From a virus, in IMG/VR virus record IMGVR_UViG_3300037851_000568, positions 10,139 through 74,138 of that record: 64,000 nucleotides of DNA; one strand, written 5' to 3'. Below the pieces are notes generated by a model, which saw only the letters and a program-made list of their open reading frames with translations, was not told where the DNA came from and ran no database searches. The first letter of the stretch is position 1; every line of letters begins with the position of its first letter. The translations under genes and the position numbers were made by a program. Shown here piece after piece: positions 10,908-37,331 of this stretch.

Positions 10908-11562
10908 TCCGGGGCAGCAGCTACCGCTGCGCGGTGATCGTGAGGCCATCGACCAGCGTCGCGCTCTGGTCAAGGAGATGCTGGTTCGTGGCATGTCCAC
11001 GATGGCCATCGCCAAGGCCATCGGCGTGCATCGGAACACCATCCTGAACGACTCCAAGGAGATCCGGCGCACCATGCGTCAGGGGATCAAGGAGATCGAT
11101 CCGGTTCAGTCCATCGCCAACTCGGTGGAAATCTTCGACATGGTGGTCAAGGAGTCCATCGTCCAGTACCACAGTTCCGAGGGTAAGGCGGCCAAGGTCC
11201 AGTTTCTTCGCACGATCACCGAGACGGAGGCCACCAAGCTCAAGTTCCTGATGTCCACCGGCCTCCTTCCCAGCCACGGGCTGGAGAAGGTCATTGATGC
11301 CGAAGTCAGCACCGAGAAGACCAAGCACGTGGAAGGCAAGTTCCAGAAGGCCGGGCTTGGAGAGGTGCTAAAGAGCCCGGAATCCCGGCGCAAGATCTTG
11401 TCGGCTTTCCAGAAGTTCCTGACCATCGGCAAGCAGGAGGTTTTGGAGGCGGGAAAACGAGAGGAGGGTGTCAATGGCGGACAAAGTGGACCTTCAGGAG
11501 CTGATCCTGGAGCGGGAGAAGCTGAAGGGGGAACGCCTCCAGCTGCAGGAGGCGCTCCGTAA
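10891..11562 (+). CDS. HTH DNA-binding protein, possible terminase small subunit
   Basis: RGMSTMAIAKAIGVHRNTILND HTH; lies upstream of TerL; TTG start uncertain. Confidence 0.6.
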   Translation: MTHPTSPGQQLPLRGDREAIDQRRALVKEMLVRGMSTMAIAKAIGVHRNTILNDSKEIRRTMRQGIKEIDPVQSIANSVEIFDMVVKESIVQYHSSEGKAAKVQFLRTITETEATKLKFLMSTGLLPSHGLEKVIDAEVSTEKTKHVEGKFQKAGLGEVLKSPESRRKILSAFQKFLTIGKQEVLEAGKREEGVNGGQSGPSGADPGAGEAEGGTPPAAGGAP

Positions 11563-12526: not shown

Positions 12527-15500
12527 ATGCTCAAGAAGGTTGACGATAAGTGGGTTACCGTCCGCACGGAGGCCGAAGAAGCAGCTGCGCTTCAGGCTGA
12601 TCTGGCGCGGCTGAGCCCTGAAGAGCGGGCCGCGCTGCAGCTGATGGTGGCGGAAAGCCAGCTTCCGTCCATCTCCGGTACCGCTAGCATCGTCGAGTCC
12701 GTGGCCGACCTGGAGTACGCTCGTATTCCGGTCGGCCCCAGACAGTACCTTGAAGATCCCTACTACATGGGCGAGGTCGCCCGGAACATGTTCCCCAAGC
12801 TTCGGGACGACTTCATCAACATCTTCACCGGCGGCTACGAGGAACTGGTTGCGACCGGATCCATCGGCTTGGATTCCTTGATCCAAGAAGCTGATGGGGG
12901 TCTTCCCACGCTGGGAGAGCGGATCGGACATTCTGGTGATGTGGTCACGGTCATGGATCATGGCACCGACACGTCTACGACCGAACCGGCCCACCACTCC
13001 GGCATCAAGAAGGTTTTGCGGTTGACGCTGGCCAACGGCATGTCCGTAACCCTCACCCCGGATCACGAAGTGCTGGTGCGCAGGCTGACCGGTAATGCGT
13101 GGGTGGAAGCGCGGCAAATCCAGCTTGGTGATCTGGTCCTCTGTCCACGGGTTATCAAGACGACTCCGTCCTCCGACATTTCCGAAGACGAGGCTGCCCT
13201 GTTGGGCTATTGGACCACGGACGGCTCTTCGTCTGATACTCGTGCGCGATTCTCCGACGGCAATCCGAGAACCACCGAACATGTCATGGATTTGCTTCCC
13301 AAGTTCGGTTTCTCCGGCCGTCGATACAAGCTTACGGGGAGCAAGTGCTGGGAAGTATCCGTGTCTAAGGTGAAGACCGGCGGATTCTCTGCGTGGCTGC
13401 AAAGGCACGGCGTTTTCCGTCGTCAGTGCGGGACGGTTACGGTTCCGCAGGCGGTGTGCCGGGCGTCCAACTCTGCTGTGGCTGCGTTTCTTCGCGCTGT
13501 GTGGGCTGCAGAGGGAAGCGTCTACTGCCCCGGTAACCGGCGCTCGCCGCCTAGGTTTGCACTTGGGATGATCTCCGAGAGATTCATTCGTCAGGTCCAG
13601 CTTCTTCTCCTCAGATTCGGGGTGCAGGCCAGGATTCGTAAGACCGACTACGTAGACAAGCGTAACGGAGCCAGCAGGCTCATCTGGCATCTGGCGGTCA
13701 CGGGTGCGGAGCAGATGGCTGCGTTCCTGACCGGTGTTGGCCCCATCCTCGGTAAAGAGGACGCCTGCCGTAGGATTGCGGATTACTGCAAATCTGTGAA
13801 GGCTAATACCAACGTGGATCTGCTGCCGTTTACTCGTGGCTGGCTCAGCTCCGAGATGGCGTCATCTGGGATCGTTCGTCCTAGAGGAGACCGGTGGTGG
13901 ATCCTCAAGTCTCGATCTGATGCCAGAATTTCGAGAGGGTCGTTTGCGGAATGGCTTGCTAATTACGGCCGCACTGATCTTGGTCAGCACCTGAAGTCCG
14001 AGTTCCCTGACGACGTGATGTACGAGCCCGTCGTCAAGCTCGAATCCGTCGGTGTTAGCGTTCCGGTCGGCGACGTCGGCGCTCATCGCGGAAACCGATT
14101 CGTGGCCAACGGCATTTCGGTCCATAACTCCATCGGCTTTGGCAAGAGCTTCTTCGGGACCATGTGCCTGTCGTACGTGCTCTACCAGCTTAGCTGCCTG
14201 CGGAATCCCGCCGAGTCGTATGGTCTGGCTGCCGGATCCCAGCTGCACTGTGTTAACCTTTCCGCCCGCAAGGACACCGCCCAGCGTGTCATCTTCGACG
14301 GTGTGGCGGACAAGCTTGAGCTGTCGCCGTACTTCAAGGAGATCGGGTTCGAGCGACGCAAGGATTCCTTGCGGTTCCCACACAACATCGTGGTGGTCGG
14401 CGGCGAATCCACCGACAGCTCCGTGCTGGGCTTGTCCGTCATCGCGGCCATCGTCGACGAAACCAACTTCATCAAGACGTCGGCCGCACGCCGGACCGCT
14501 TCTGGCATGCAGCACTACGGGCGTGCCGAGATGCTCTACAGCTCCATCAAGAGCCGCATGCAGTCGCGCTTCATGAAGGCTGGGCAGCTCCCGGGTCTGC
14601 TCATGCTTCTGTCCTCGCGTCAGGTTCCTGATGACTTCACGGAGACCCGCATCCGGCAATCCGTCGACGATCCCAAGATCTACGTCATGGACTACGCCCT
14701 CTGGGACGTGAAGCCGGATAACTACTCCAAGGAGCGCTTCAAGGTCTTCGTAGGATCCGGCGGCCAGAAGCCCAAGATCTTGGACGCCGGTGAAAAGATT
14801 CAGCTTCACGAAGGTGAACGGATCGTGGAGGTTCCTGTCGACTTCCGTAAGCGCTTCGAGGAGAACCTCACGGGTTCGCTCCGTGATCTGGCTGGCGTCT
14901 CGGTCGTCACGATCACCAACTTCCTCCAGAACCGCGAGATGCTGTTCAAGGCCGTGGACAAGACACGGGTCCACCCTTTCTCCGTGGACGAATGGGAGAT
15001 CGGCACCGACGGCAAGTTCCTCTGGGACAAGCTGGTCACGAAGGGTGCCGATGGGGAGTTCTCCCCGATCAAGTTCCCCGAAGCCGTGCGGTACATCCAC
15101 ATCGACCCGTCGATCAGCGGTGACGCAACCGGGTTGGCCATGGGCTGCGTCTGCGGGTTCAAGCGGGTGGTCAGGCACGACAACGAGGGGAAGAAATTCG
15201 AGGAGGAGGCTCCCCAGATCTGGGTGGACCTCGTACTCCGGATCACTCCGCCGCAGGGCGGCGAAATCTTCCTTGGCGACGTGCGCAACCTCATCTATCA
15301 GCTCTCCGAGAGGGGATTCCCGATCAGCAAGGTTTCCATGGACTCCTACCAGTGCATGGCGGCTGGGACCATGGTGAACACGCGTCGTGGGTTGATTCCA
15401 ATCGAAGAGGTTCGGGTTGGAGATACGGTCCAATCTAGGATTGGGCCACGGGCCGTGCAGAAGACTTGGTCTTTCGGACGAAAGCCAACCCTCCGAATCA

Positions 15501-16957
15501 CCACGGACGACGGAGATGAGATCGAGGGGACGGACAGGCATCGTATTGAGGTGGCCGTCGGTTGGGAGGATGCGAAGCCTTCAAAATACGGTCACACCAG
15601 AGAGCCCGTCTGGGCTTGGAAGATGCTGTCCGAAATAAAGGCGGGTGACATCGTCCATCTTACCGGGGCAACGCAGGTTGATGGCAACGCGGTCAAGTTG
15701 AACGGCTCCAAGAAGGCCTTCGGGTGGCGGAAAGGGCCGCCCAGCTCGATTGACGGGTGGGCTTTTCCCGCGAAGATGACCGCGAAGCTGGCCGAGTGGC
15801 TCGGCCTCGTGTGGGGGGATGGAAGTGTAAGCGAAGACGGCGTTCGGGTTAGCGTGACGGCTGACGAGGCTGACGACGCGAAAGCTGTCTTCCGCAGGCT
15901 TTTTGGGGTTGCGCCGGAGTGGCACGCTTACGGTGATCGTAACTGCGGATACGTTGGAGTCAGTGCCCGGTGGCTTATTCGTTGGATGTCGGCCAACGGC
16001 CTCGTAAAACCATTGATCCCGGCCGCCATTCTTCGCTCTGGCAGGCGTATTAAGGCGGCTTTTCTTCGCGGGTTGTTCGCGACGGATGGCTCGGTTGGCC
16101 GGACGCAGGGGTCGGTCTCCTTGTCGACGGCCCACAAAGTCTTGGCCGATCAGGTGCGCCTTATTTTGAGAACTGATTTTGGGATCGAGTCTTGCCTCAC
16201 CAAAATCGTGCGCGGCTCCCGCGGCGATTATCCGTCGGCCCGCAATTTTCAGTACGTTGTCGCCGTGCGAGGCGCTCGCAAGGAGTTCCTTGAAAAAATC
16301 GGTTTTTCGTACGTTCGTAAGCACAAGCTGCTTTCCAAGCACTCTGGTGTCCGGGGCCGTAGGATCTTTCCACGCGTTGCGTCTGTTACACGCAGCGAAG
16401 CGGAGGTGTACGACCTTCAAGTGGCTGAGGATCCGTCCTACGTGGCGAACGGATTCGTGTCGCACAACAGCATCGAGAGCCTGCAGCAGTTGCGGCTCAA
16501 GGGGTACCAGACGGAGATCATCTCGGTGGACGCCAAGATGGATCCGTACGAGATGCTCAAGGGTACCTTGTACGAGGGGCGCGTCTCCATCTACGACTAC
16601 CCGGTCCTGATCAACGAGATGAAGAACCTTGAGCTGGACTGGGTGCGCAGGAAGGTAGACCACCCCATTCACGGCACCAAGGACGTCGCGGATGCTCTCT
16701 GCGGGCTGGTTTACTCGCTGACCCAGAAGTACACCAAGAAGGGGGGCCCCAACGGCTACGGCGCGGCCCCGATGCAGGGCATCTCGGAGCTTCCGCAGCA
16801 GAACACGTACGTTCCAGTAGACTCCAAGAGCGGAAAGCGCGGGCAGATCCTCTGGCCTGATGAGTACGAGGACCAGCTGTGGGGCAAGGAAGAGGAAGCC
16901 GACAAGGACTTTGATGGAGGGGACGACGGCAGCATGCCGCCGTTCATCGTGGGGTGA
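12527..16957 (+). CDS. terL: terminase large subunit with two inteins
   Basis: After splicing: Walker A GSIGFGKS, Walker B IVDE, nuclease HIDP, MDSYQS and HGTKDVADA motifs. Confidence 0.92.
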   Translation: MLKKVDDKWVTVRTEAEEAAALQADLARLSPEERAALQLMVAESQLPSISGTASIVESVADLEYARIPVGPRQYLEDPYYMGEVARNMFPKLRDDFINIFTGGYEELVATGSIGLDSLIQEADGGLPTLGERIGHSGDVVTVMDHGTDTSTTEPAHHSGIKKVLRLTLANGMSVTLTPDHEVLVRRLTGNAWVEARQIQLGDLVLCPRVIKTTPSSDISEDEAALLGYWTTDGSSSDTRARFSDGNPRTTEHVMDLLPKFGFSGRRYKLTGSKCWEVSVSKVKTGGFSAWLQRHGVFRRQCGTVTVPQAVCRASNSAVAAFLRAVWAAEGSVYCPGNRRSPPRFALGMISERFIRQVQLLLLRFGVQARIRKTDYVDKRNGASRLIWHLAVTGAEQMAAFLTGVGPILGKEDACRRIADYCKSVKANTNVDLLPFTRGWLSSEMASSGIVRPRGDRWWILKSRSDARISRGSFAEWLANYGRTDLGQHLKSEFPDDVMYEPVVKLESVGVSVPVGDVGAHRGNRFVANGISVHNSIGFGKSFFGTMCLSYVLYQLSCLRNPAESYGLAAGSQLHCVNLSARKDTAQRVIFDGVADKLELSPYFKEIGFERRKDSLRFPHNIVVVGGESTDSSVLGLSVIAAIVDETNFIKTSAARRTASGMQHYGRAEMLYSSIKSRMQSRFMKAGQLPGLLMLLSSRQVPDDFTETRIRQSVDDPKIYVMDYALWDVKPDNYSKERFKVFVGSGGQKPKILDAGEKIQLHEGERIVEVPVDFRKRFEENLTGSLRDLAGVSVVTITNFLQNREMLFKAVDKTRVHPFSVDEWEIGTDGKFLWDKLVTKGADGEFSPIKFPEAVRYIHIDPSISGDATGLAMGCVCGFKRVVRHDNEGKKFEEEAPQIWVDLVLRITPPQGGEIFLGDVRNLIYQLSERGFPISKVSMDSYQCMAAGTMVNTRRGLIPIEEVRVGDTVQSRIGPRAVQKTWSFGRKPTLRITTDDGDEIEGTDRHRIEVAVGWEDAKPSKYGHTREPVWAWKMLSEIKAGDIVHLTGATQVDGNAVKLNGSKKAFGWRKGPPSSIDGWAFPAKMTAKLAEWLGLVWGDGSVSEDGVRVSVTADEADDAKAVFRRLFGVAPEWHAYGDRNCGYVGVSARWLIRWMSANGLVKPLIPAAILRSGRRIKAAFLRGLFATDGSVGRTQGSVSLSTAHKVLADQVRLILRTDFGIESCLTKIVRGSRGDYPSARNFQYVVAVRGARKEFLEKIGFSYVRKHKLLSKHSGVRGRRIFPRVASVTRSEAEVYDLQVAEDPSYVANGFVSHNSIESLQQLRLKGYQTEIISVDAKMDPYEMLKGTLYEGRVSIYDYPVLINEMKNLELDWVRRKVDHPIHGTKDVADALCGLVYSLTQKYTKKGGPNGYGAAPMQGISELPQQNTYVPVDSKSGKRGQILWPDEYEDQLWGKEEEADKDFDGGDDGSMPPFIVG
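12860..14128 (+). mobile_element. intein 1 in the TerL Walker A motif (Ser-initiated, LAGLIDADG endonuclease)
   Basis: Starts SIGLDSLI, block B TLTPDH, ends VHN/S; motifs LGYWTTDGS and FLRAVWAAEGS. Confidence 0.85.
15353..16468 (+). mobile_element. intein 2 in the TerL nuclease domain (LAGLIDADG endonuclease)
   Basis: Starts CMAAGT, ends VYDLQV...SHN/S; motifs LGLVWGDGS and FLRGLFATDGS. Confidence 0.9.
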
Positions 16958-23927: not shown

Positions 23928-26675
23928 ATGGGCGGACCTCTTGACTGGATCCGGTCGGTCTTCGGACGTCACCAGGACCGGATCGACAACGCCATCAACC
24001 CGGCAGCCGGAACGACCGGCGAGCCGATGGGGATGGACCTGTACAGCTACTACGGGATGGACGCCATCGGCGACTATCTCCGTGTTGATCAGGATCTCGT
24101 AGCCCGGTACCTCGACTACAACGAAATGATCTCCTACCCGGAGATCGCGGCGGCCGTGGACGTGTACGCCGAGGATGCCTGCATCACGGCCGATACGGAG
24201 ATCCCGTTTCTCGATGGGACTACTCATACGGTAGGGGATCTGTACGCACGAGGTGTTAAGGACGGCTGGGTCTACGGGTACTCCAGGGAGAAGAATCGGT
24301 TCACCGCCACCTGTTTTGAACGGGTGGACATGGTCAATCCTAATATCGAGATTTTGGAAGTCGTTTACCGGAAGCGTACCGGGGAGGCCGGGTCCATCAA
24401 GGTGACGCCGGAGCACAAGTTCCTGCTCAGGAACAACGAGTATGTTCGGGCGTCGGATCTGAAAGTCGGCGACCGGTTGATGCCGCTCTACCGTTGCCAG
24501 ACCAGACTTAGCCATGGTGTGAAGAACAAGTATGAACGCATCATGATCGACCCGAAATCCTCCTGCAAGAAGTGGTTGCCGACGCACATCATGGTGGCCT
24601 CCGAGATGTATACGACGGCACAGCTGGACGGGAAGCAGGTTCACCACAAGGACGAGAACACCCTCAACAACGATCCGTCGAACTTGGATCCGAAGACTCC
24701 GGCAGAGCACGCTTCGGAGCACCACGCCGAGCGACGGGATTATTCGGACTCGGAACTGGCGGAGAGGCTTCGCGAGCAGGTCAAAGGTGGGCGACAGGGA
24801 ATTCAGAAGGCCGCCCTTGGTGTCGGGCATAGCGTCAGCGAGTTGTGGCACTTGGTCAAGCGGATGGGGTACTCGGGTTGGAACGATTTCTTGGCCTCGT
24901 GCGGGGTGCCCGTCCGGAGGCTCAATCACCAGAAACCTGGAACCGATGAAGACCGGCTGGAGCAGGCGCTGACGGCGTACGCGGCTGCTCCAGAGGGTGG
25001 GGTCAAACGAGCCGCTAAAACCGTTGGATACAGTACCGGCGGGTTCTACATGTTCTTGAGACGGATGGGCATCACGCCGGTCCGATTCAAGGAGATGGCA
25101 GAGGCCGGAGTTGACGGCAACCATCAAGTCGTTGAGATCAAGGCGGCCGGGCGTGCTGCCGTCTACGACCTTGTGAACTCCCGGCAGACCGGGAATTTCG
25201 CCGCTGGCCGCAACGGCCATTACGTGGTGGTCAAAAACACCCAGCCCAACACCATGACCGGCGACACGGTCTGGATCGAATCCGATGACCACGAAGTTCG
25301 GACCGATCTTGGGGCCATGCTGAAAAAGCGGGCCCACATCGAGGACGAGATCTGGGGCATCGCCAAGACGCTGGTGATGTACGGCAACGACTTTTCCGAG
25401 ATCCTCGTCACCAAGGACGAAGGCGTCGTCGGTCTACATGCCCTTCCTCCGGAGACCATGCGCCGTGTGGAGGGCCTCAAGGGCGAGCTGTTGGGATTTG
25501 TACAGGACCCCTCCGGACAGTTCCGTGTCCAGCCTGCCGAGTTCGTGGAGATCCTCCAGAAGAAGAAGCCGGTCCCGTCCGGGGTCGTCATCTTCGAGCC
25601 TTGGCAGGTGGCGCACGACCGGCTTCAGACTCGGTATCGGCAGAGCCCGTACGGGCAGTCCGTGCTTGAGCCTGCGCGGTGGATCTGGAAGCGCCTTCTG
25701 CTGCTCGAAGACGCCATGATGATCTACCGGTTGACGCGGGCCCCGAGTCGCTTCGCGTTCTACGTGGACGTCGGGGAAATGCCGCCGCGTCAGGCGATGC
25801 GGTATATGCAGACGATGCGACAGAACTTCAGGAAGAAGAAGTTCGTCAACCCGCAGAGCGGCAAGCTTGACCTCCGGTTCTCGCCGCTGGCTCAGGACGA
25901 GGATTTCTACATTCCCGTGCGTGGCGGACGGGAAAGCACTCGCATCGATGTCCTGCAGGGTCCGGACTTCCCCGGATCTACCGAGGACACGCTCTACTTC
26001 TACCAGAAGCTGCTCACTGCCTTGAAAGTTCCGCCCGCCTTCCTCGGACGGGAGGAGAACACGGCGGCGAAGAACGTTCTGGCCCACGAGGACGTCCGAT
26101 TTGCCCGCGCCGTCATGCGTGTCCAGCGGGAACTCCGCAACGGCCTCAAGAAGGTCTGCGACGTCCATCTGGCTTCCCGAAACATCGACCCGGAGTCCGT
26201 GGACTACGAAGTCTTCATGACCACGCCGTCGGGCATCTACGAACTGGCACAGATGGAGATCCGGAAGGCCCGCGTGGAGTTCGCCGAACTGCTTCAGGAC
26301 GGCGAATGGGTCTCGAAGCGCTGGATCATGAAGGAGATCCTCGGGTTCAGCGACGATCAGGTGGATCAGATGATGGCGGAGCGGATGCAGGAGGAGGAGT
26401 CCGGCGGGGCTCCGCCCCAGCGGGCCGCCCGTCCGTCGGGGCCGCCTCCCGTCGAGCAGCTCCAGCCCGGGGAGAAGTACCGGCGGGTGGACGGTCGGCG
26501 GATCATCACCGACGACGTCGACAACGGCAGCAAGAAGGCGGAGGCGTACACGAAGAAGCACCTCGACGAGATGCTCAAGCACAACAAGGGCCTCGACAAG
26601 CGGCTGGCCCACTTGTCGGCGCTCTGTATGGACATCCGGTCGAACATGCGCCGTAACGGCAGCCACGGCGGATGA
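23928..26675 (+). CDS. portal protein (T4 gp20-like) with an intein
   Basis: YPEIAAAVD, IYRLTRAPSRFAFYVDVG, EDFYIPVRGG, YFYQKLLTALKVP. Confidence 0.9.
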   Translation: MGGPLDWIRSVFGRHQDRIDNAINPAAGTTGEPMGMDLYSYYGMDAIGDYLRVDQDLVARYLDYNEMISYPEIAAAVDVYAEDACITADTEIPFLDGTTHTVGDLYARGVKDGWVYGYSREKNRFTATCFERVDMVNPNIEILEVVYRKRTGEAGSIKVTPEHKFLLRNNEYVRASDLKVGDRLMPLYRCQTRLSHGVKNKYERIMIDPKSSCKKWLPTHIMVASEMYTTAQLDGKQVHHKDENTLNNDPSNLDPKTPAEHASEHHAERRDYSDSELAERLREQVKGGRQGIQKAALGVGHSVSELWHLVKRMGYSGWNDFLASCGVPVRRLNHQKPGTDEDRLEQALTAYAAAPEGGVKRAAKTVGYSTGGFYMFLRRMGITPVRFKEMAEAGVDGNHQVVEIKAAGRAAVYDLVNSRQTGNFAAGRNGHYVVVKNTQPNTMTGDTVWIESDDHEVRTDLGAMLKKRAHIEDEIWGIAKTLVMYGNDFSEILVTKDEGVVGLHALPPETMRRVEGLKGELLGFVQDPSGQFRVQPAEFVEILQKKKPVPSGVVIFEPWQVAHDRLQTRYRQSPYGQSVLEPARWIWKRLLLLEDAMMIYRLTRAPSRFAFYVDVGEMPPRQAMRYMQTMRQNFRKKKFVNPQSGKLDLRFSPLAQDEDFYIPVRGGRESTRIDVLQGPDFPGSTEDTLYFYQKLLTALKVPPAFLGREENTAAKNVLAHEDVRFARAVMRVQRELRNGLKKVCDVHLASRNIDPESVDYEVFMTTPSGIYELAQMEIRKARVEFAELLQDGEWVSKRWIMKEILGFSDDQVDQMMAERMQEEESGGAPPQRAARPSGPPPVEQLQPGEKYRRVDGRRIITDDVDNGSKKAEAYTKKHLDEMLKHNKGLDKRLAHLSALCMDIRSNMRRNGSHGG
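24180..25238 (+). mobile_element. intein in the portal gene carrying an HNH endonuclease and HTH modules
   Basis: Starts CITADT, block B VTPEH, ends VYDL...VVKN/T; VHHKDENTLNNDPSNL. Confidence 0.85.
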
Positions 26676-32279: not shown

Positions 32280-32353
32280 GCGGGTGTCGTTCAATGGCAG
32301 GACCTCAGTCTTCCAAACTGAAGACGCCGGTTCGATTCCGGTCACCCGCTCCA
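32280..32353 (+). tRNA. trnG: tRNA-Gly(TCC)
   Basis: Cloverleaf, TTCGA, CCA. Confidence 0.92.
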
Positions 32354-32354
32354 C

Positions 32355-32428
32355 AGGCCGGTGGTGAAGTGGTATCACGACTGTTTCCAAATCAGTAGTC
32401 CGGGGTTCGATCCCCCGCTGGCCTGCCA
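32355..32428 (+). tRNA. trnW: tRNA-Trp(CCA)
   Basis: Cloverleaf, G73, CCA. Confidence 0.88.
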
Positions 32429-32435
32429 AAAATTT

Positions 32436-32510
32436 GGTCCCGGAGTGTGACGGACAGCACGACACCCTGTCACGGTGTTAGAACGGGTTCGACTCCCGTC
32501 GGGATCGCCA
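32436..32510 (+). tRNA. trnD: tRNA-Asp(GTC)
   Basis: Cloverleaf, G73, CCA. Confidence 0.92.
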
Positions 32511-32511
32511 C

Positions 32512-32586
32512 TGGGGCGTGGTGTAACCGGTAGCACGTCTGACTCTGAATCAGAAAATCAAGGTTCGAGTCCTTGCGCCCCAGCCA
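32512..32586 (+). tRNA. trnQ: tRNA-Gln(CTG)
   Basis: U1:A72, G73, CCA. Confidence 0.92.
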
Positions 32587-32590
32587 ACTT

Positions 32591-32666
32591 GGACGACTAG
32601 CTAATCTAGTGAAAGCGCCGGTCTGAAAAGCCGGAGAGCCCGGAGCGAAACCGGGGTCGTCCACCA
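32591..32666 (+). tRNA. trnF: tRNA-Phe(GAA), T-loop AGCGAAA
   Basis: Cloverleaf, CCA. Confidence 0.85.
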
Positions 32667-32675
32667 AAAATTCGA

Positions 32676-32753
32676 CGCAGGGGAGAGGCACCCGGTGACC
32701 TCACCAGGCTCATAACCTGGGGCTTGTGGGTTCAAATCCCATCCCTGCTACCA
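32676..32753 (+). tRNA. trnM: tRNA-fMet-like (CAT)
   Basis: C1:U72 mismatch; CAT anticodon; only two of the three initiator GC pairs. Confidence 0.8.
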
Positions 32754-32754
32754 A

Positions 32755-32828
32755 GGGCCCGTCGTCCAACGGTAAGACACCTGCCTTGCAAGCAGGGAAT
32801 AGGAGTTCAACTCTCCTCGGGTCCACCA
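32755..32828 (+). tRNA. trnA: tRNA-Ala(TGC)
   Basis: G3:U70, CCA. Confidence 0.92.
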
Positions 32829-32834
32829 AATTTC

Positions 32835-32871
32835 GGGTGTGCTTGAATGTGGGAACGCTAGACTGTAAACT
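32835..32871 (+). pseudogene. 5' half of a disrupted tRNA-Tyr (overlaps a TTGAAT-N17-TAAACT promoter)
   Basis: GGGTGTG acceptor strand and CTGTAAA anticodon loop; pairs with CGCGCCC at 33513-33519. Confidence 0.5.
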
Positions 32872-32877
32872 ATCTTT

Positions 32878-33381
32878 ATGCCAGCTTTCGCGTCTTTAGA
32901 GCAACGATTCTGGTCGAAGGTCAAGAAGTCCGAATCCGGTTGCTGGTTGTGGATGGGGAGTCGGTCCAAATCTGGGTACGGATGGATTCATCTCGGAGGA
33001 AACCCGTACAAGGGCACCCGAAAAGGCGGAAGGGCGCATCGTGTCTCATGGGAGTTTGCTTTCGGCTCCATCCCCGATGGGCTAGATGTCCTTCACAAGT
33101 GCGATAATCCTCCATGCGTTCGCCCGGATCATCTCTTCCTCGGAAACGACTCCTCAAACGTACGGGACATGATCGAGAAGGGGAGGGCGTGGTTCCAGAC
33201 CCAACCCGGAGTAGCTCCTCGTGGGGAGAAAAATGGAAGGGCCAAGATGACGTGGAGAAGAGTTCGCCGCATCCGAAACCTGCATCGAAAAGGTGTTTCT
33301 CTTCGTGAGCTTGGGAGGATGTTTAGGCTCGACTTCTCTACAGTTGGAAGCATTGTTCGCAGGGAGACGTGGAAGGAATAA
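32878..33381 (+). CDS. free-standing HNH homing endonuclease (HNH + C-terminal HTH)
   Basis: FWSKV..GCWLW..GYG..AHRVSW..HKCDNPPCVRPDHL..N..DM..KGR, GEKNGRAK. Confidence 0.9.
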   Translation: MPAFASLEQRFWSKVKKSESGCWLWMGSRSKSGYGWIHLGGNPYKGTRKGGRAHRVSWEFAFGSIPDGLDVLHKCDNPPCVRPDHLFLGNDSSNVRDMIEKGRAWFQTQPGVAPRGEKNGRAKMTWRRVRRIRNLHRKGVSLRELGRMFRLDFSTVGSIVRRETWKE

Positions 33382-33474
33382 GCCGGGGCTGGGCAGGTCT
33401 AGGACAAAGAGCCCATCTGCCTGTAAAGCAGACGCCTTCGGGTTGTGTGGGTGCGAATCCCACCTCCGGCACCA
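33382..33474 (+). tRNA. trnY: tRNA-Tyr(GTA), enlarged D-loop, T-loop TGCGAAT
   Basis: TCTGC-CTGTAAA-GCAGA, long variable arm, CCA; starts immediately after the HNH stop. Confidence 0.85.
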
Positions 33475-33523
33475 AAACTCGTGCCCTTGTGGATAGGCGG
33501 TTCGATTCCTCACGCGCCCACCA
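33475..33523 (+). pseudogene. 3' half of a disrupted tRNA (T-arm remnant, acceptor strand, ACCA)
   Basis: GGTTCGATTCC...CGCGCCC-A-CCA with no 5' half adjacent. Confidence 0.55.
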
Positions 33524-33533
33524 AAGACTTCGC

Positions 33534-33601
33534 GGCTCGACGCGATCCTGAAAGACGTGAACAGGGATACCGAAGGAAATGTTGGCCCTGCGCGTCGAGC
33601 C
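33534..33601 (+). ncRNA. small unclassified structured RNA
   Basis: Perfect 11-bp helix GGCTCGACGCG/CGCGTCGAGCC between tRNAs. Confidence 0.45.
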
Positions 33602-33606
33602 CGTAC

Positions 33607-33680
33607 TGCCCTGTCATCTAACGGTAGGATGCTGGTCCTTGAAACCGGTCATGAGCGTTCGAGTCGCTCCGGGGCAACCA
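33607..33680 (+). tRNA. trnQ: tRNA-Gln(TTG) with C33
   Basis: U1:A72; loop CC-TTG-AA; CCA. Confidence 0.8.
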
Positions 33681-33688
33681 ATCTTTCT

Positions 33689-33763
33689 GGGGGAGTAGTC
33701 GAGCAGCAAGACGCCTCGTTGCCAACGAGGAGATCGCGGGGGCGGAACCCGTCTCCCCCTCCA
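33689..33763 (+). tRNA. trnG: tRNA-Gly(GCC), T-loop GGCGGAA
   Basis: Cloverleaf, U73, CCA. Confidence 0.85.
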
Positions 33764-33764
33764 A

Positions 33765-33839
33765 CGGCCCGTAGCTCAACGGTCAGAGCACTCGGTTGAT
33801 AACCGAGCGACGAAGGTTCGACTCCTTCTGGGCCGACCA
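33765..33839 (+). tRNA. trnI: tRNA-Ile(GAT)
   Basis: Cloverleaf, CCA. Confidence 0.92.
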
Positions 33840-33850
33840 GATTTCTACAT

Positions 33851-33927
33851 GGTGGCCATGGTGTAGTAGCTCTGCACGCCTGACTGTCACTCAGGAGGTA
33901 CGGGGGCGGAACCCGTTGGTCACCCCA
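33851..33927 (+). tRNA. tRNA with a His-type acceptor (G-1:C73) and Asp anticodon GTC
   Basis: G-GTGGCCA/TGGTCAC-C-CCA; CCTGA-CT-GTC-AC-TCAGG; T-loop GGCGGAA. Confidence 0.8.
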
Positions 33928-33933
33928 AAATTC

Positions 33934-34008
33934 CGGGACGTAGGGGAATGGTACCCCGCCTCTTTGGGGTAGAGGAAGTCGCGAGTTCGATTCTCGCCGT
34001 CCCGACCA
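33934..34008 (+). tRNA. trnP: tRNA-Pro(GGG)
   Basis: C1:G72, CCA. Confidence 0.92.
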
Positions 34009-34009
34009 C

Positions 34010-34083
34010 GCCCGCATAGGTCAGAGGCAGACCGCCAGCATGACACGCTGGAAACGGAGGTTCGATTCCTCCTGTGGGCACCA
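34010..34083 (+). tRNA. trnV: tRNA-Val(GAC)
   Basis: Cloverleaf, CCA. Confidence 0.9.
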
Positions 34084-34086
34084 CTA

Positions 34087-34160
34087 GCCGGTGTAGGATA
34101 ACGGCAGTCCACCAACTTGGTAAGTTGGGAGAGCGGGTTCGACTCCCGCCATCGGCTCCA
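34087..34160 (+). tRNA. trnT: tRNA-Thr(GGT)
   Basis: Cloverleaf, CCA. Confidence 0.92.
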
Positions 34161-34163
34161 CCT

Positions 34164-34239
34164 GCTGGCGTAGCTCAACTGGTAGAGCACCTGTTTTGTA
34201 AACAGGCGGTTGCCCGTTCAACCCGGGTCGCCAGCTCCA
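34164..34239 (+). tRNA. trnT: tRNA-Thr(TGT)
   Basis: Cloverleaf, CCA. Confidence 0.92.
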
Positions 34240-34266
34240 ATAAAAAAGCCCTCCGACAGGGAGGGC
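34240..34266 (-). terminator. minus-strand intrinsic terminator inside the tRNA array
   Basis: Minus strand reads GCCCTCC-CTGTC-GGAGGGC-TTTTTTAT. Confidence 0.6.
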
Positions 34267-34310
34267 CAAAGCTGGGTTGTCCACTAGGGACTGGACCAGC
34301 AGTATATCAC

Positions 34311-34384
34311 GCCGCTCTGGTGCAACAGCAGCACGCCGGTCTCATAAGCCGGAAATCCCGGGGCAGCTCCGGGGGGCGGTACCA
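34311..34384 (+). tRNA. tRNA-Met/Ile2(CAT), T-loop GGCAGCT
   Basis: Cloverleaf, CCA. Confidence 0.8.
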
Positions 34385-34385
34385 C

Positions 34386-34481
34386 GGAGGGGTAAGCGGG
34401 TGGGAACCCGCCGCCGTCTCGAAATCGGATGGCACCCGAGATTCAACCGGGTGTGGGGTTCGACTCCTCACCCCTCCTCCA
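34386..34481 (+). tRNA. trnS: tRNA-Ser(CGA)
   Basis: Long variable arm; U73; CCA. Confidence 0.85.
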
Positions 34482-34482
34482 C

Positions 34483-34572
34483 GGAGACGAAGGCAGTCAG
34501 CGTGCCGCAGCGGCTTGAACCCGCTTGCCCGGCCAGTCCGGGTCGCGTGTGCAACTCACGCCGTCTCCTCCA
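34483..34572 (+). tRNA. trnS: tRNA-Ser(TGA), T-loop TGCAACT
   Basis: Long variable arm; U73; CCA. Confidence 0.85.
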
Positions 34573-34582
34573 AAACATTCAC

Positions 34583-34668
34583 GGAGGCGTTGGGCATTGG
34601 CAGGCCCACTTCCTTGGAAAGGAAGCGTCGTAACTGGCGTGCGCGTTCGACTCGCGCCGCCTCCGCCA
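34583..34668 (+). tRNA. trnS: tRNA-Ser(GGA)
   Basis: Long variable arm; G73; CCA. Confidence 0.9.
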
Positions 34669-34669
34669 T

Positions 34670-34755
34670 GGAGAGGTAGGCTAATTGGTAAGCCACCACT
34701 TTGCTAAAGTGGCGCTGTAAAAGGCTTGCGGGTTCGAGCCCCGCCCTCTCCGCCA
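34670..34755 (+). tRNA. trnS: tRNA-Ser(GCT)
   Basis: Long variable arm; G73; CCA. Confidence 0.9.
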
Positions 34756-34814
34756 TCAAGAACAAAGGGTCCTGATCAGGATAGCGTGCTCAGCACGATG
34801 GTCGGGCCAAGAAT

Positions 34815-34888
34815 GGACGCGTGGCCAAATAGCAAGGCACCCGTTTGCAAAGCGGGTAGTGCAGGTGCAAGTCCTGCCGCGTCCTCCA
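34815..34888 (+). tRNA. trnC: tRNA-Cys(GCA), T-loop TGCAAGT
   Basis: U73; CCA. Confidence 0.88.
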
Positions 34889-34895
34889 AATATTT

Positions 34896-34972
34896 GCCGG
34901 GGTAGCTCATTTTAGTAGAGCGCCTGCTTCGTAAGCAGGAGGTGGCGGGGGCAGAGCCCGCCCTCGGCTCCA
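34896..34972 (+). tRNA. trnT: tRNA-Thr(CGT), T-loop GGCAGAG
   Basis: Cloverleaf, CCA. Confidence 0.85.
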
Positions 34973-34973
34973 T

Positions 34974-35047
34974 TCCAGCGTGAGGTAATGGTAGCCTGAC
35001 GGATTGTTAATCCGTTCGCGGTGGTTCGACCCCACCCGCTGGAGCCA
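34974..35047 (+). tRNA. trnN: tRNA-Asn(GTT)
   Basis: U1:A72, G73, CCA. Confidence 0.92.
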
Positions 35048-35052
35048 ATCTT

Positions 35053-35124
35053 GTCCCCGTGGCCGAGCAGAGAGGCTCCCGTCTTCTAAACGGGCCGACG
35101 TGGGCGCAAATCCCACCGGGGATA
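35053..35124 (+). tRNA. trnR: tRNA-Arg(TCT), T-loop CGCAAAT, no encoded CCA
   Basis: Cloverleaf; the next tRNA starts at 35126. Confidence 0.82.
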
Positions 35125-35125
35125 C

Positions 35126-35199
35126 GGCCTCGTCGTCTATCGGAAGGACGCCGCCCTCTCAAGGCGGAAAGGTGGGTTCGACTCCCATCGAGGCTGCCA
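35126..35199 (+). tRNA. trnE: tRNA-Glu(CTC)
   Basis: Cloverleaf, G73, CCA. Confidence 0.92.
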
Positions 35200-35204
35200 A
35201 TCTT

Positions 35205-35279
35205 GGGCCGCTCGTCTACGAGGTAGGATCTCTGGTTTTCACCCAGAAGAACGGGGTGCGACTCCCCGGCGGCCTACCA
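35205..35279 (+). tRNA. trnE: tRNA-Glu(TTC), T-loop TGCGACT
   Basis: Cloverleaf, A73, CCA. Confidence 0.87.
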
Positions 35280-35280
35280 C

Positions 35281-35354
35281 GCCTCCGTAGTCTAACAGGA
35301 AGAGACCCGGTTTTTACCCGGGGGATGGAGGTGCAAATCCTCCCGGAGGCACCA
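35281..35354 (+). tRNA. trnK: tRNA-Lys(TTT), T-loop TGCAAAT
   Basis: Cloverleaf, CCA. Confidence 0.87.
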
Positions 35355-35366
35355 ACAAAAATATTC

Positions 35367-35441
35367 GCCTTCGTAGGTCAATTGGAAGACGACCTCGCTC
35401 TTAACGAGGGGATCTCGGTTCGAGTCCGAGCGAAGGCACCA
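35367..35441 (+). tRNA. trnK: tRNA-Lys(CTT)
   Basis: Cloverleaf, CCA. Confidence 0.92.
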
Positions 35442-35446
35442 ATCTT

Positions 35447-35529
35447 GCCCCGGTGCTTGGAATTGGCATACAGCCCTCACTCAAAACGAGGGGCCGAAAG
35501 GCGTGTGGGTTCGACTCCCTCCCGGGGCA
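35447..35529 (+). tRNA. trnL: tRNA-Leu(CAA), followed by CCG rather than CCA
   Basis: Long variable arm; A73. Confidence 0.87.
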
Positions 35530-35533
35530 CCGT

Positions 35534-35617
35534 GGGCCTCTGATGGAACAGCAGACATGCCGGTCTTAGAAGCCGGTGCCGAAAGGCGTTGGGGTGCGAC
35601 TCCCCCGAGGCCCACCA
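35534..35617 (+). tRNA. trnL: tRNA-Leu(TAG), T-loop TGCGACT
   Basis: Long variable arm; CCA. Confidence 0.88.
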
Positions 35618-35627
35618 AAACATTCAT

Positions 35628-35713
35628 GCGCGGGTGGCGGAACTGGCAGACGCGCTGGTCTCAGAAGCCAGTGGGTAACACCCGTGGAGGTTCGATTCCT
35701 CTCCCGCGCACCA
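35628..35713 (+). tRNA. trnL: tRNA-Leu(CAG)
   Basis: Long variable arm; CCA. Confidence 0.92.
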
Positions 35714-35714
35714 A

Positions 35715-35788
35715 GCCCTCTTGGCGTAATGGCAGCGCACCTAGCTTACACCTAGGCGGCGGGGGTTCGATTCCCTCAGAGGGCACCA
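35715..35788 (+). tRNA. trnV: tRNA-Val(TAC)
   Basis: Cloverleaf, CCA. Confidence 0.92.
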
Positions 35789-35794
35789 ATATTT

Positions 35795-35878
35795 GCAGCC
35801 GTGGCGAAATGGCAGACGCGTCCGTTTGAGGGGCGGATGGGGAAACCCGTGGAGGTTCGACTCCTCTCGGCTGCACCA
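35795..35878 (+). tRNA. trnL: tRNA-Leu(GAG)
   Basis: Long variable arm; CCA. Confidence 0.92.
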
Positions 35879-35885
35879 AATTCAA

Positions 35886-35961
35886 CGGGCCATGGGGTAA
35901 TCGGCAACCCGCCTGCTTCGGGAGCAGGAACATCCCGGTTCGAGTCCGGGTGGCCCGACCA
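35886..35961 (+). tRNA. trnP: tRNA-Pro(CGG)
   Basis: C1:G72; CCA. Confidence 0.92.
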
Positions 35962-35969
35962 ATCTTCAT

Positions 35970-36045
35970 GGGCCGGTAGCTCAGCGGCAGGAGCGGCCAG
36001 CTCATAACTGGACGGTAGCGGGATCGTCACCCGCACGGCCCACCA
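35970..36045 (+). tRNA. tRNA-Ile2/Met(CAT), T-loop ATCGTCA
   Basis: Cloverleaf, CCA. Confidence 0.82.
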
Positions 36046-36046
36046 A

Positions 36047-36122
36047 CAGGCTCAGGGGTAGATAGCGACCCGCCTCGCTTGGAACGAGGAGAAGGAACGT
36101 GCAAGTCGTTCGAGCCTGACCA
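36047..36122 (+). tRNA. trnP: tRNA-Pro(TGG), A37, T-loop TGCAAGT
   Basis: C1:G72; CCA. Confidence 0.87.
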
Positions 36123-36128
36123 AATATT

Positions 36129-36432
36129 GGAGCGTTCGCTGTCGCTGCGGAGGTAGCAGTACCTCCTAGCTCATGGGACAACGGCCCAAACGAGTATCCG
36201 TAAGTCTCCAGCGCCCACACCCGCGAAGGGGCGCAAGAGGCGAGGCAGGGCGGTGGCATACGCCCGTCACGACCTGTACCTCGGAGATGATCTTGGCCGG
36301 GTCGCCGCAATAAGGGTTTGGGGTAAATCCTGCCGCGAAAGCGAGACGGGGCATGAAAGGTAGCGGGTGCCACGGCGACTAAACCCCGCAGCAGGTGAGT
36401 GGATAGGCAAAAGCGAGGTCAGCGAACGCTCC
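36129..36432 (+). ncRNA. raiA-motif-like large structured ncRNA
   Basis: 13-bp terminal helix; AAACGA-TATCC-GTAAG, TCCTGCCG..GCGAGA, CAGCAGGTGAGT-GGATA, CAAA..AGGTC; crossing (pseudoknot) pairings. Confidence 0.75.
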
Positions 36433-36437
36433 TTTAG

Positions 36438-36511
36438 GCCCCCGTGGTGTAGCAGAGGCACAGCTGTTTCCTAAACAGCAAGGTCCGGCGCAACTCCGGA
36501 CGGGGGCTCCA
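36438..36511 (+). tRNA. trnR: tRNA-Arg(CCT), T-loop CGCAACT
   Basis: Cloverleaf, U73, CCA. Confidence 0.85.
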
Positions 36512-36518
36512 AACATTC

Positions 36519-36593
36519 GCCCCGGTAGTGAAATGGACATCACGGCTCCCTCCGAAGGAGTCATTGCGAGTTCGAGTCTCGCCTGGGGCACCA
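36519..36593 (+). tRNA. trnR: tRNA-Arg(CCG)
   Basis: Cloverleaf, CCA. Confidence 0.92.
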
Positions 36594-36594
36594 T

Positions 36595-36671
36595 CTCCCC
36601 GTCCCGTAACTGGACAACGGTCCCGGCTACGAACCGGGCACATACAGGTTCGAGTCCTGTCGGGGAGACCA
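36595..36671 (+). tRNA. trnR: tRNA-Arg(ACG)
   Basis: Cloverleaf, CCA. Confidence 0.92.
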
Positions 36672-36675
36672 AAGC

Positions 36676-36703
36676 TTGGCGCTGCTGTCTGGCCTGATAT
36701 GAT
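36676..36703 (+). promoter_or_regulatory. promoter TTGGCG-N16-TATGAT (extended -10)
   Basis: TGnTATGAT; ATG at 36711. Confidence 0.5.
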
Positions 36704-36710
36704 TGGTGAG

Positions 36711-37331
36711 ATGGATATGAACGCCCAACGGAAGATGTCCCGGCCGACCCTGGTGCTCAACAAGCACTGGAGCCCGATCCAGACCGCCCCGGTACAGGAG
36801 GCGATCAGCCTTGTGGCCAAGGGCTCGGCCAAGATCATCGACCCGAAGACCTTCGAGGCCCACGATCTGCTGTCGTGGAACGACGTCTCCAAGGCCAAGG
36901 GCCAGTTCGAGGACTCGGTCATCCGGTCCGCCCACCTTTCGCTGGTGGCCCCGGAGGTGATCGTCCTGACCGGCTACGAGGGTCTTGCGGTCCGTTCGGT
37001 GGTTTTCAGCCGGAAGAGCTTGTTCAAGCGGGACCGGTACACGTGCCAGTACTGCGGCAAGCAGCCTGGTCCGTCGGAGCTGACCATCGACCACGTGATG
37101 CCGAAGTCCCGTGGCGGGATCTCGTCTTGGACCAACTGCGTGCTGGCCTGCGTGGAGTGTAACAAGTTCAAGGCCAACCGTACGCCGGACGAGGCCAAGA
37201 TGTCGCTCCGCAAGGTTCCGAAGAAGCCGTCTTGGAAGGCTCTGGCGGAGATCCCGTCGGTCGCCCGCCGGGAGTCGTGGGAGCAGTTCCTGTCTCGCGC
37301 CTACTGGGAGGTCGAACTCGAAGCTCGATGA
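36711..37331 (+). CDS. HNH endonuclease (McrA-like)
   Basis: TLVLN, RDRYTCQYCG, TIDHVMPKSRGG, NCVLACVECN. Confidence 0.9.
   Translation: MDMNAQRKMSRPTLVLNKHWSPIQTAPVQEAISLVAKGSAKIIDPKTFEAHDLLSWNDVSKAKGQFEDSVIRSAHLSLVAPEVIVLTGYEGLAVRSVVFSRKSLFKRDRYTCQYCGKQPGPSELTIDHVMPKSRGGISSWTNCVLACVECNKFKANRTPDEAKMSLRKVPKKPSWKALAEIPSVARRESWEQFLSRAYWEVELEAR

Follow-up and report, generated by a model that had tools for sequence, protein, structure and literature searches.

A phage tRNA array with two kinds of elbow

We examined a 64,000-nucleotide (nt) stretch of viral DNA, here called the window, which covers bases 10139-74138 of an 86.9-kilobase IMG/VR contig (IMGVR_UViG_3300037851_000568) with an estimated completeness of ~37% and a G+C content of 61%. 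The contig comes from an uncultured contractile-tailed jumbo phage (a myophage) and carries terminase, portal, protease, major capsid, tail sheath and baseplate genes. Just downstream of the major capsid gene lies an array of transfer RNA (tRNA) genes (32280-36671, plus strand) that is dense and entirely co-oriented, as in other jumbo-phage tRNA sets. Using ARAGORN at a relaxed threshold together with Rfam and manual folding, we count 40 tRNA genes in this array. Twenty-six of them have the canonical elbow, the place at which D-loop and T-loop meet, and 14 form a group with A18 and G55 that we refer to as variants. Besides these tRNAs, the array contains an HNH gene, a tRNA-Tyr left as two relic halves, and a raiA-like RNA.

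In the canonical elbow, G18 intercalates between bases 57 and 58 and bonds to pseudouridine 55 (Psi55), while G19:C56 forms the outer face (PMC4810234, PMC7912444). A sequence-only reading of this DNA had described G18:Psi55 as near-universal and as the target of TruB, which is correct (PMC7912444), and had proposed that a compensatory A18:G55 elbow replaces it in many isotypes. This proposal gains support from the recurrence of the pair in diverged alleles and in unrelated phages and from a structural precedent (PMC3664808), all of which are described below.

The 14 variant genes lie on the plus strand; scores in bits are those against the Rfam tRNA model RF00005. The first, tRNA-Phe(GAA) (32591-32666; 51.7 bits), has A54-G55-C56 in the T-loop, A-G and no GG in the D-loop, and A73. 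It is followed by tRNA-Tyr(GTA) (33382-33474; 34.4 bits), which stands directly after an HNH gene and combines U54-G55-C56 with a long variable arm and A73, and by tRNA-Gly(GCC) (33689-33763; 50.1 bits), with G54-G55-C56, G58 and U73. A tRNA with the histidine identity pair G-1:C73 and the anticodon GTC (33851-33927; 45.5 bits) has the variant elbow as well, and so do the second of three tRNA-Met(CAT) genes (34311-34384; 44.4 bits), in which G54 is matched by G58, tRNA-Ser(TGA) (34483-34572; no RF00005 match), with a long variable arm, and tRNA-Cys(GCA) (34815-34888; 61.4 bits), with U73. Next come tRNA-Thr(CGT) (34896-34972; 46.8 bits), which again pairs G54 with G58 and was missed by ARAGORN, and tRNA-Arg(TCT) (35053-35125; 48.9 bits), which has A20 after A18-G19 and is the only variant without a full CCA. 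Both tRNA-Glu(TTC) (35205-35279; 44.1 bits) and tRNA-Lys(TTT) (35281-35354; 58 bits) have a variant T-loop, the former with an ambiguous 8-nt D-loop containing A-G-G and the latter with a 7-nt D-loop. The variant elbow is found, finally, in tRNA-Leu(TAG) (35534-35617; 39.9 bits), with a long variable arm and A73, in tRNA-Pro(TGG) (36047-36122; no RF00005 match), which has the C1:G72 and A73 of bacterial tRNA-Pro, and in tRNA-Arg(CCT) (36438-36511; no RF00005 match), where A20 follows A18-G19.

D-loop and T-loop change together

A T-loop with G55-C56 (N-G-C) is present in 14/40 tRNAs, exactly the 14 that had been named from the sequence, and U55 in the other 26/40. The T-loops of the U55 tRNAs read U-U-C, except for A-U-C in one Met. 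All 26 have GG in the D-loop, again as the sequence-only reading had stated. By contrast, 11 of the 14 G55 tRNAs have a D-loop without any GG and with A-G in the 18-19 register, while the remaining three (Tyr, Glu-TTC and Lys-TTT) contain A-G-G. The earlier statement that AG replaces GG in all 14 is thus strictly true of 11. It is probably true of Lys-TTT, whose 7-nt D-loop has A where 12/12 canonical 7-nt loops have G18, which favors A18-G19-G20; for Tyr and Glu-TTC it is undecidable.

This covariation is a direct observation and it survives structural alignment. If we count only GG-free D-loops (11/14 G55 tRNAs and 0/26 U55 tRNAs), the association has p = 1.6e-7 in a Fisher test, and p = 4e-11 if the three A-G-G cases are taken as A18. 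A comparison limited to 7-nt D-loops, which does not depend on register, shows that loop position 4 is A in 6/6 variants and in 0/12 canonical tRNAs (p = 5e-5). The register of the A-G is also fixed independently by the variant Arg tRNAs, because their identity base A20 immediately follows A-G just as it follows GG in canonical Arg tRNAs.

A second covariation lies within the T-loop. The 54-58 pair of the 14 variants is U-A in seven, G-G in four, C-A in two and A-A in one. When distinct loops from all sources are considered, G54 goes with G58 in 4/4, and loops with U54, C54 or A54 have A58 in 11/12, the other being a Gly tRNA of contig L115 with U58. The 54-58 pair is variable among the canonical-elbow tRNAs of these arrays as well: A54 stands with U58 in the third Met (35970-36045, plus strand) and with A58 in two genes of the related phage L001 (9470-9544 and 10236-10310).

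Across 26 distinct variant genes from six sources, G55, C56, purine 57, A18 and G19 are invariant. Among the ~300 tRNAs read, we found no half-converted intermediate (A18 with U55, or G18 with G55). The sole apparent exception, an L001 gene at 11412-11498 that combines GG with a C-G-C T-loop, proved to be a recombinant chimera of an Arg-ACG 5' half and the 3' half of an Arg-CCT of the type found in the window.

Two other accounts of the variant T-loop were considered and rejected. In one, positions 55-58 (G-C-R-A) would form a GNRA tetraloop; G58 occurs in four loops, position 58 co-varies with 54 and not with 55, and C56 is invariant together with G19. In the other, the T-loop would avoid a TCGA restriction site, a site that most canonical tRNAs of the array retain.

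The variants are built as complete tRNAs

We next asked how the variants compare with canonical elongator tRNAs as described by RF00005. The acceptor stem is fully paired (7/7) and the anticodon stem likewise (5/5) in 14/14 variants. The T stem is 5/5 in 13/14 and 4/5 in Leu-TAG; 12 of the 5/5 values come from a count at fixed offsets, and that of Arg-TCT, which lacks a full CCA and was mis-registered by the script, from the ARAGORN and manual folds. The D stem has 3-4 base pairs (bp), the value for Ser-TGA being taken from the ARAGORN fold. Every variant has U33 and purine 37 in an anticodon loop of 7 nt, 13/14 encode CCA, and G19-C56 is retained in 14/14, with G18-U55 replaced by A18-G55. 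The T stems are G-C rich, like those of the canonical neighbors. The variants therefore resemble canonical elongator tRNAs in their 7/4/5/5 cloverleaf, U33, purine 37, G19:C56, G53:C61, identity elements and CCA, and differ from them in A18, in G55, in accepting any base at 54 and in pairing G54 with G58.

The identity elements fit the anticodons: Cys and Gly have U73, Pro has C1:G72 and A73, the Arg tRNAs have A20, and Phe, Tyr, Leu and Lys have A73, while Tyr, Ser and Leu have long variable arms. In total the variants span 13 amino-acid identities, and Phe, Tyr and Cys are present in the array solely as variants. Identity and anticodon disagree only in the His body (G-1:C73) with GTC, an Asp anticodon. 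This tRNA has GTG in L001 and in a second relative, L003, a single-base difference, and the array holds no other tRNA-His. For the GTC-bearing His body, an assembly error, a population variant and a genuine missense-type tRNA are all conceivable.

Eleven of the 14 variants match RF00005 at 34-61 bits, above its gathering threshold of 29 bits. ARAGORN in its default setting missed 5/14 variants and none of the canonical genes. None of the 14 shows truncation, broken stems or a chimeric junction, and the true relics of these arrays look different. Codon usage gave no pattern: the variants read both the commonest phage codons (TTC, TAC, GGC and ACG) and the rarest (CTA, TCA, CCA and AGA).

Alleles are replaced slot by slot

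The relatives L001 and L003 have a major capsid protein that is 99% identical to that of the window and a syntenic tRNA array in the same order. When the window and L001 are compared slot by slot, the identities are bimodal, with 93% or more in about 20 slots and 58-78%, at the same anticodon, in about 19. The Ser-GCT slot of the window has no partner in L001. The elbow design differs between the phages in the slots Met1, Tyr, Cys, Arg-TCT, Glu-TTC and Lys-TTT, and five slots that are variant here are canonical in the closest relative. In the Phe, Thr-CGT, Pro-TGG and Arg-CCT slots the alleles have diverged and are variant in both phages, all with A18 and G55. This exchange within slots is visible directly in the arrays. 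Because variant and canonical alleles take each other's place while the anticodon stays constant, they are most simply functional equivalents.

We also asked where the variants came from. The Thr-CGT variant is 76% identical to canonical Thr-GGT, a tRNA of its own isotype, whereas other variants are close to variants: Arg-TCT is 88% and Cys 80% identical to the Arg-CCT of L001. Kinship of both kinds indicates that the design was gained or transferred more than once. A single origin was rejected, as identity across isotypes is scarcely higher between variants (0.50) than between variants and canonical tRNAs (0.48).

Endonuclease genes mark several of the replaced slots. An HNH_3 homing-type endonuclease gene (32878-33381, plus strand; PF13392, E 1.6e-13) and the variant tRNA-Tyr behind it are inserted within an older, canonical tRNA-Tyr. 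The 5' relic of this gene (32835-32871, plus strand) matches the intact L001 gene over its first 21 nt; the 3' relic (33475-33523, plus strand), which has a U54-U55-C56 T-loop and CCA, matches it as well. The motif A-A-A-C-T occurs on both sides of the insert (32867 and 33475). In its predicted form, this insert of an HNH_3 gene and a tRNA-Tyr is a homing-endonuclease cassette. A further HNH gene is located in or next to the array (36528-37331).

Comparable events are found in L001. At 10691-11498, an Arg-CCT of the window type is split by an insert with a variant Arg-CCT, an Arg-CCG and an HNH_3 gene, and the event left a 24-nt 5' relic and a chimeric Arg-ACG/Arg-CCT gene. At 8777-9303, a window-type Asn is cut, with its 3' half left behind a new canonical Asn allele and a Cys-rich open reading frame (ORF; 8874-9263) that has CxxC pairs and no Pfam match. 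The L001 array also holds a PD-(D/E)XK_5 endonuclease gene. All three mapped junctions (3/3) fall between the D-arm and the anticodon loop. Both designs are found on cassettes: a variant Tyr here, and in L001 a variant Arg-CCT and a canonical Asn. The position of the junctions and the presence of both designs on cassettes mean that endonucleases can explain the turnover of alleles, but not the change of elbow. In the picture that we favor, same-anticodon alleles are replaced slot by slot, in part through cassettes that interrupt a resident tRNA gene and deliver its replacement, and canonical and variant alleles interchange within a slot. An association of this HNH family with variant tRNAs was also rejected, as 80 viral loci with relatives of the HNH protein (up to 60% identity) held seven tRNAs, all of them canonical.

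A well-known parallel is SegB of phage T4, a free-standing homing endonuclease in a phage tRNA cluster that is tied to the preferential inheritance or replacement of neighboring tRNA genes. The genes described here are likewise embedded in a phage tRNA region and linked to the replacement of neighboring tRNAs. Unlike SegB, these predicted endonucleases of the HNH type split a resident tRNA gene and bring a replacement with the same anticodon.

The variant elbow is rare in other phages

Two cultured phages with large arrays have canonical tRNAs almost throughout (45/46; 24/25 in CcrSC and 21/21 in LuckySocke). The sole G55 tRNA of this pair belongs to Caulobacter phage CcrSC; it is a tRNA-Tyr that has A-G but lacks GG (L086 11541-11624, corresponding to about 88376-88459 of MH588547.2) and is unannotated in the GenBank record. 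A 15-mer from the T-arm of one variant led to the unrelated contigs L115/G003, L137 and L166, which contain five variant tRNAs, three of them with different T-loops; all five have A-G and no GG. Four complete jumbo-phage genomes were met by chance in the same 15-mer scan. Of their called tRNAs, 138/147 have U55-C56 with GG and 1/147 is a variant, with A-G. The design is thus rare, on the order of 1% of the phage tRNAs sampled as compared with 35% of this array; the former figure is probably too low, since some variants escape gene finders. Megablast of the array against GenBank phages gave no close relative, and blastn for distant relatives returned scattered matches to canonical tRNAs only and no cultured relative.

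Some tRNAs of these phages depart from the canonical elbow in other ways. In L166 (11420-11492) and L005 (694-767), the D-loop has G-A at the G18-G19 positions and the T-loop reads U-U-U, with U56, so that the other elbow pair is exchanged for a matched A19:U56; a further L166 gene (7052-7124) has GG with U56. An Arg-TCT in L001 (9308-9385) and a Ser-GCT in L205 (G004; 8423-8512) have a U-C-C T-loop (C55) with a normal GG, another kind of change at position 55 and a rarer one.

Structural precedents for an A-G elbow

We found no description in the literature of A18/G55 tRNAs, either among cellular or phage tRNAs or in tRNA arrays. There are, however, RNAs in which a T-loop accepts an intercalating A. 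In the L1 stalk, RNase P and T-box leaders, interdigitated double T-loop modules use A for intercalation; it enters between T-loop positions 4 and 5 and forms a trans Watson-Crick/sugar-edge pair with a conserved G at position 2, and the closing pairs are U-A or A-A (PMC3664808). The base combination of the variants (A18, G55 and the 54-58 pair) is identical to that of these modules, and at the sequence level the variants satisfy the intercalating-A T-loop motif, with G55, purine 57, a co-varying 54-58 pair and A18. The two differ in that the intercalating A of the modules is the last base of a second T-loop and does not come from a D-loop. The modules also lack a Watson-Crick pair of the 19:56 type, and their context is a ribosomal RNA, a ribozyme or a riboswitch.

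A second precedent is viral. The consensus of Rfam RF00233, the tymovirus valine-accepting tRNA-like structure, has C-A-G-U in the D-loop and U-G-C-A-A-C-U in the T-loop. It thus shares with the variants A-G at the G18-G19 positions and G at the position of U55, and its 7-mer T-loop is that of Ser-TGA here. In the solved element of turnip yellow mosaic virus, the association of D-loop and T-loop is described as nearly identical to that of tRNA, and viral tRNA mimics interact with synthetases, eEF1A, RNase P and the ribosome (PMC4810234). The tymovirus structure presumably makes an A-G contact like the one we propose for the variants. Unlike them, it is a 3'-terminal element of plant RNA viruses whose acceptor arm is pseudoknotted and whose D-loop has 4 nt, and not a free tRNA.

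The third case is the set of non-proteogenic (NP) tRNA-Gly of staphylococci (NP1-3), in which G18 and U55 are missing and which are hypomodified (PMC13443448). G19 is absent from them too, their anticodon loop is shortened and their EF-Tu determinants in the T stem are weak; they comprise one isotype, which is excluded from translation and serves cell-wall synthesis (PMC13443448). The variants differ in keeping G19:C56, 7-nt anticodon loops and G-C-rich T stems and in covering 13 identities. The NP tRNA-Gly and the viral tRNA-like structures are the nearest described natural cases.

A proposed A18-G55 lock

We put a probability of roughly three in four on the reading that the 14 genes encode working tRNAs of normal L-shape, in which the D-loop is locked to the T-loop by A18 and G55. 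In the proposed geometry, A18 would, like G18, intercalate between purine 57 and base 58, and would pair with G55, at T-loop position 2, in the manner of the trans Watson-Crick/sugar-edge A-G of double T-loop modules. The 54-58 closing pair would be maintained as U-A, C-A or A-A, or as G54 always with G58. The outer face formed by G19:C56, which is read by the ribosome, RNase P and T-boxes, would be unchanged, and by analogy with the modules the variant elbow is likely isosteric enough to preserve both this face and the L-shape. Use of these tRNAs in translation would follow, and so would a loss of modifications. By established enzymology, the variants should be barred from acquiring Psi55 (by TruB) and 2'-O-methylguanosine 18 (Gm18) because they have G55 and A18, and those without U54 should have no 5-methyluridine 54 (m5U54) because base 54 is not U.

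Several points weigh against this reading. The A18-G55 geometry is argued by analogy. For Lys-TTT, the Rfam model prefers an alignment of the GG over A18-G19-G20. The D-loop of Glu-TTC can be read both ways, and if taken as G18-G19 with G55 it would be an exception to the covariation, while that of Tyr is abnormal, at 16 nt, and ambiguous in register. Rfam scores of the variants are ~10 bits below those of their canonical neighbors, and Ser-TGA, Pro-TGG and Arg-CCT have no RF00005 match at E <= 0.1; these three are perfect cloverleaves in an ARAGORN or a manual fold. Because the arrays contain relics and chimeras, some intact-looking variants could be young pseudogenes, and the Asp anticodon on a His body could reflect relaxed selection on at least one variant.

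Why the variants exist

If the variants do work as tRNAs, they may have no special role. A near-neutral functional alternative could circulate in the phage tRNA pool by recombination and homing-endonuclease cassettes, and we hold this to be a serious possibility, though short of even odds. The replacement seen here runs in both directions in the same slots, between phages whose capsid genes are 99% identical, and the endonuclease cassettes bear either design. Little fitness cost is to be expected, since A-G is a standard T-loop solution elsewhere. On the other hand, the design is almost never used by cellular tRNAs, which suggests some cost in cells; it requires two or more coordinated changes, and yet it apparently arose or was transferred repeatedly; and its strong enrichment in only some phage arrays is not what drift alone predicts.

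Alternatively, the variants could be a form of counter-defense, in which G55, often with a base other than U54, hides phage tRNAs from immunity or enzymes that read or cut U54-U55-C56. As a corollary, translation of late phage genes could continue while host tRNAs are destroyed. The sequence-only reading had likewise suggested that such an elbow might evade host nucleases or modification enzymes that read it. Nuclease evasion is plausible because CbCash, a type III CRISPR-associated Schlafen nuclease, cleaves 5' of U55 and loses cleavage upon single mutations of U54 or U55 (PMC13462974); the U54-U55 step, on which at least one T-loop nuclease depends, would be absent from the variants. Loop mutations are known to let phage tRNAs evade anticodon nucleases, as in mycobacteriophage (PMC10264068), and a tRNA of phage T5 neutralizes PARIS (PMC11464382). 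The variants resemble such defense-escaping tRNAs in that their sequence departs from that of the host at a site read by a nuclease. They differ in that the known changes lie in the anticodon loop or stem and are specific to an isoacceptor, whereas the change here is in the elbow, affects many isotypes and has no nuclease implicated. Rapid turnover of alleles with a constant anticodon is what an arms race would produce, and the contrast between other jumbo phages (1/147) and this array (35%) would fit as well. We nevertheless consider counter-defense rather unlikely. Protection would extend to only 14/40 tRNAs and leave most of the phage set open to a general T-loop nuclease, the isoacceptors affected show no pattern in codon usage, and five slots have reverted to canonical in the closest relative. 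Within the window no defense system is linked to the variants. Pfam matches to TruB_N, CCA-adding/PolyA_pol and Schlafen AlbA_2 were absent from the 87-kb contig, which is uninformative at 37% completeness. A broader version, in which the elbow either confers immunity to T-loop-cutting systems such as Schlafen-type Cash or lets a phage factor distinguish phage from host tRNAs, and was spread by homing-endonuclease cassettes, strikes us as unlikely. Near-neutral spread by recombination is at least as likely as evasion.

A role outside translation, as decoys, sponges or donors in the manner of the staphylococcal NP tRNA-Gly, is suggested by the expected hypomodification of the variants. We find it improbable: the variants span 13 identities, their identity elements are correct and their anticodon loops have 7 nt, they retain G19:C56 where the NP tRNA-Gly do not, and their G-C-rich T stems give no sign of weakened EF-Tu determinants. 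Moreover, Phe, Tyr and Cys exist in the array as variants only, and, slot for slot, variants take the place of canonical alleles with the same anticodon.

Selection could instead have acted on the DNA, with altered D- and T-loop boxes that escape homing endonucleases or restriction enzymes directed at the conserved tRNA boxes and with A18/G55 as a repair at the RNA level. Four or five endonuclease-type genes do lie in or beside the arrays (HNH_3 and HNH here; PD-(D/E)XK_5, HNH_3 and the Cys-rich ORF in L001), each adjoining a replaced tRNA allele, and three of them interrupt tRNA genes. Their mapped junctions (3/3), however, are between the D-arm and the anticodon loop and not in the elbow boxes, the interrupted resident Arg-CCT of L001 is itself a variant, cassettes carry tRNAs of both designs, and canonical T-loop boxes persist in 26 genes of the array, all of which makes protection of the DNA very hard to credit. 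Finally, decaying pseudogenes with a covariation born of misalignment would account for the lower Rfam scores, the 5/14 genes missed by default ARAGORN and the relics in the array, but are almost certainly not the explanation, given perfect stems that are compensated across alleles 60-75% identical, five elbow bases (G55, C56, purine 57, A18 and G19) invariant in 26 distinct genes from six sources, and no half-converted intermediates.

Other features of the window

Between Pro-TGG and Arg-CCT, a 300-nt segment (36131-36430, plus strand) matches the raiA-motif RNA (RF03072) over the full length of the model, with 46.6 bits and E 1.8e-10, below the gathering score of 101. Its core blocks are conserved, with two large insertions and a 13-bp closing helix, and it is 98% conserved in L001 apart from the deletion of an 18-nt hairpin. 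In its position beside tRNAs, this raiA-like RNA parallels GOLLD and ROOL RNAs, which adjoin tRNA arrays. The Tyr relic is separated from Gln-TTG by an 83-nt segment (33524-33606, plus strand) that contains an inverted repeat of 13 bp; this segment is absent from L001, in which Tyr and Gln-TTG are 1 nt apart, and may be a small inserted hairpin element or a terminator. Elsewhere in the window, the portal ORF (23928-26675, plus strand; 915 amino acids) contains an HNH domain at residues 198-279, before the portal domain, and in an ORF of 1476 amino acids (12527-16957, plus strand) the match to the large terminase is restricted to residues 489-605. Both suggest inserted mobile elements, either an intein or an endonuclease.

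Implications for tRNA structure and phage tRNA arrays

The G18-Psi55 pair is taught as an invariant tertiary contact of tRNA and is the basis on which TruB, TrmH and several factors that read the elbow select their substrates. If our reading is true, there is a second workable tRNA elbow, taken from the general T-loop repertoire, and these phages provide natural tRNAs without Psi55 and Gm18, and often without m5U54, with which to probe the roles of these modifications. Such tRNAs are under-called by gene finders: ARAGORN in its default setting missed 5/14 and Rfam 3/14, and one CcrSC gene is unannotated. Escape from T-loop-cutting immunity is a directly testable hypothesis. Finally, the replacement of alleles slot by slot, together with the endonuclease cassettes, offers a view of how phage tRNA arrays turn over.

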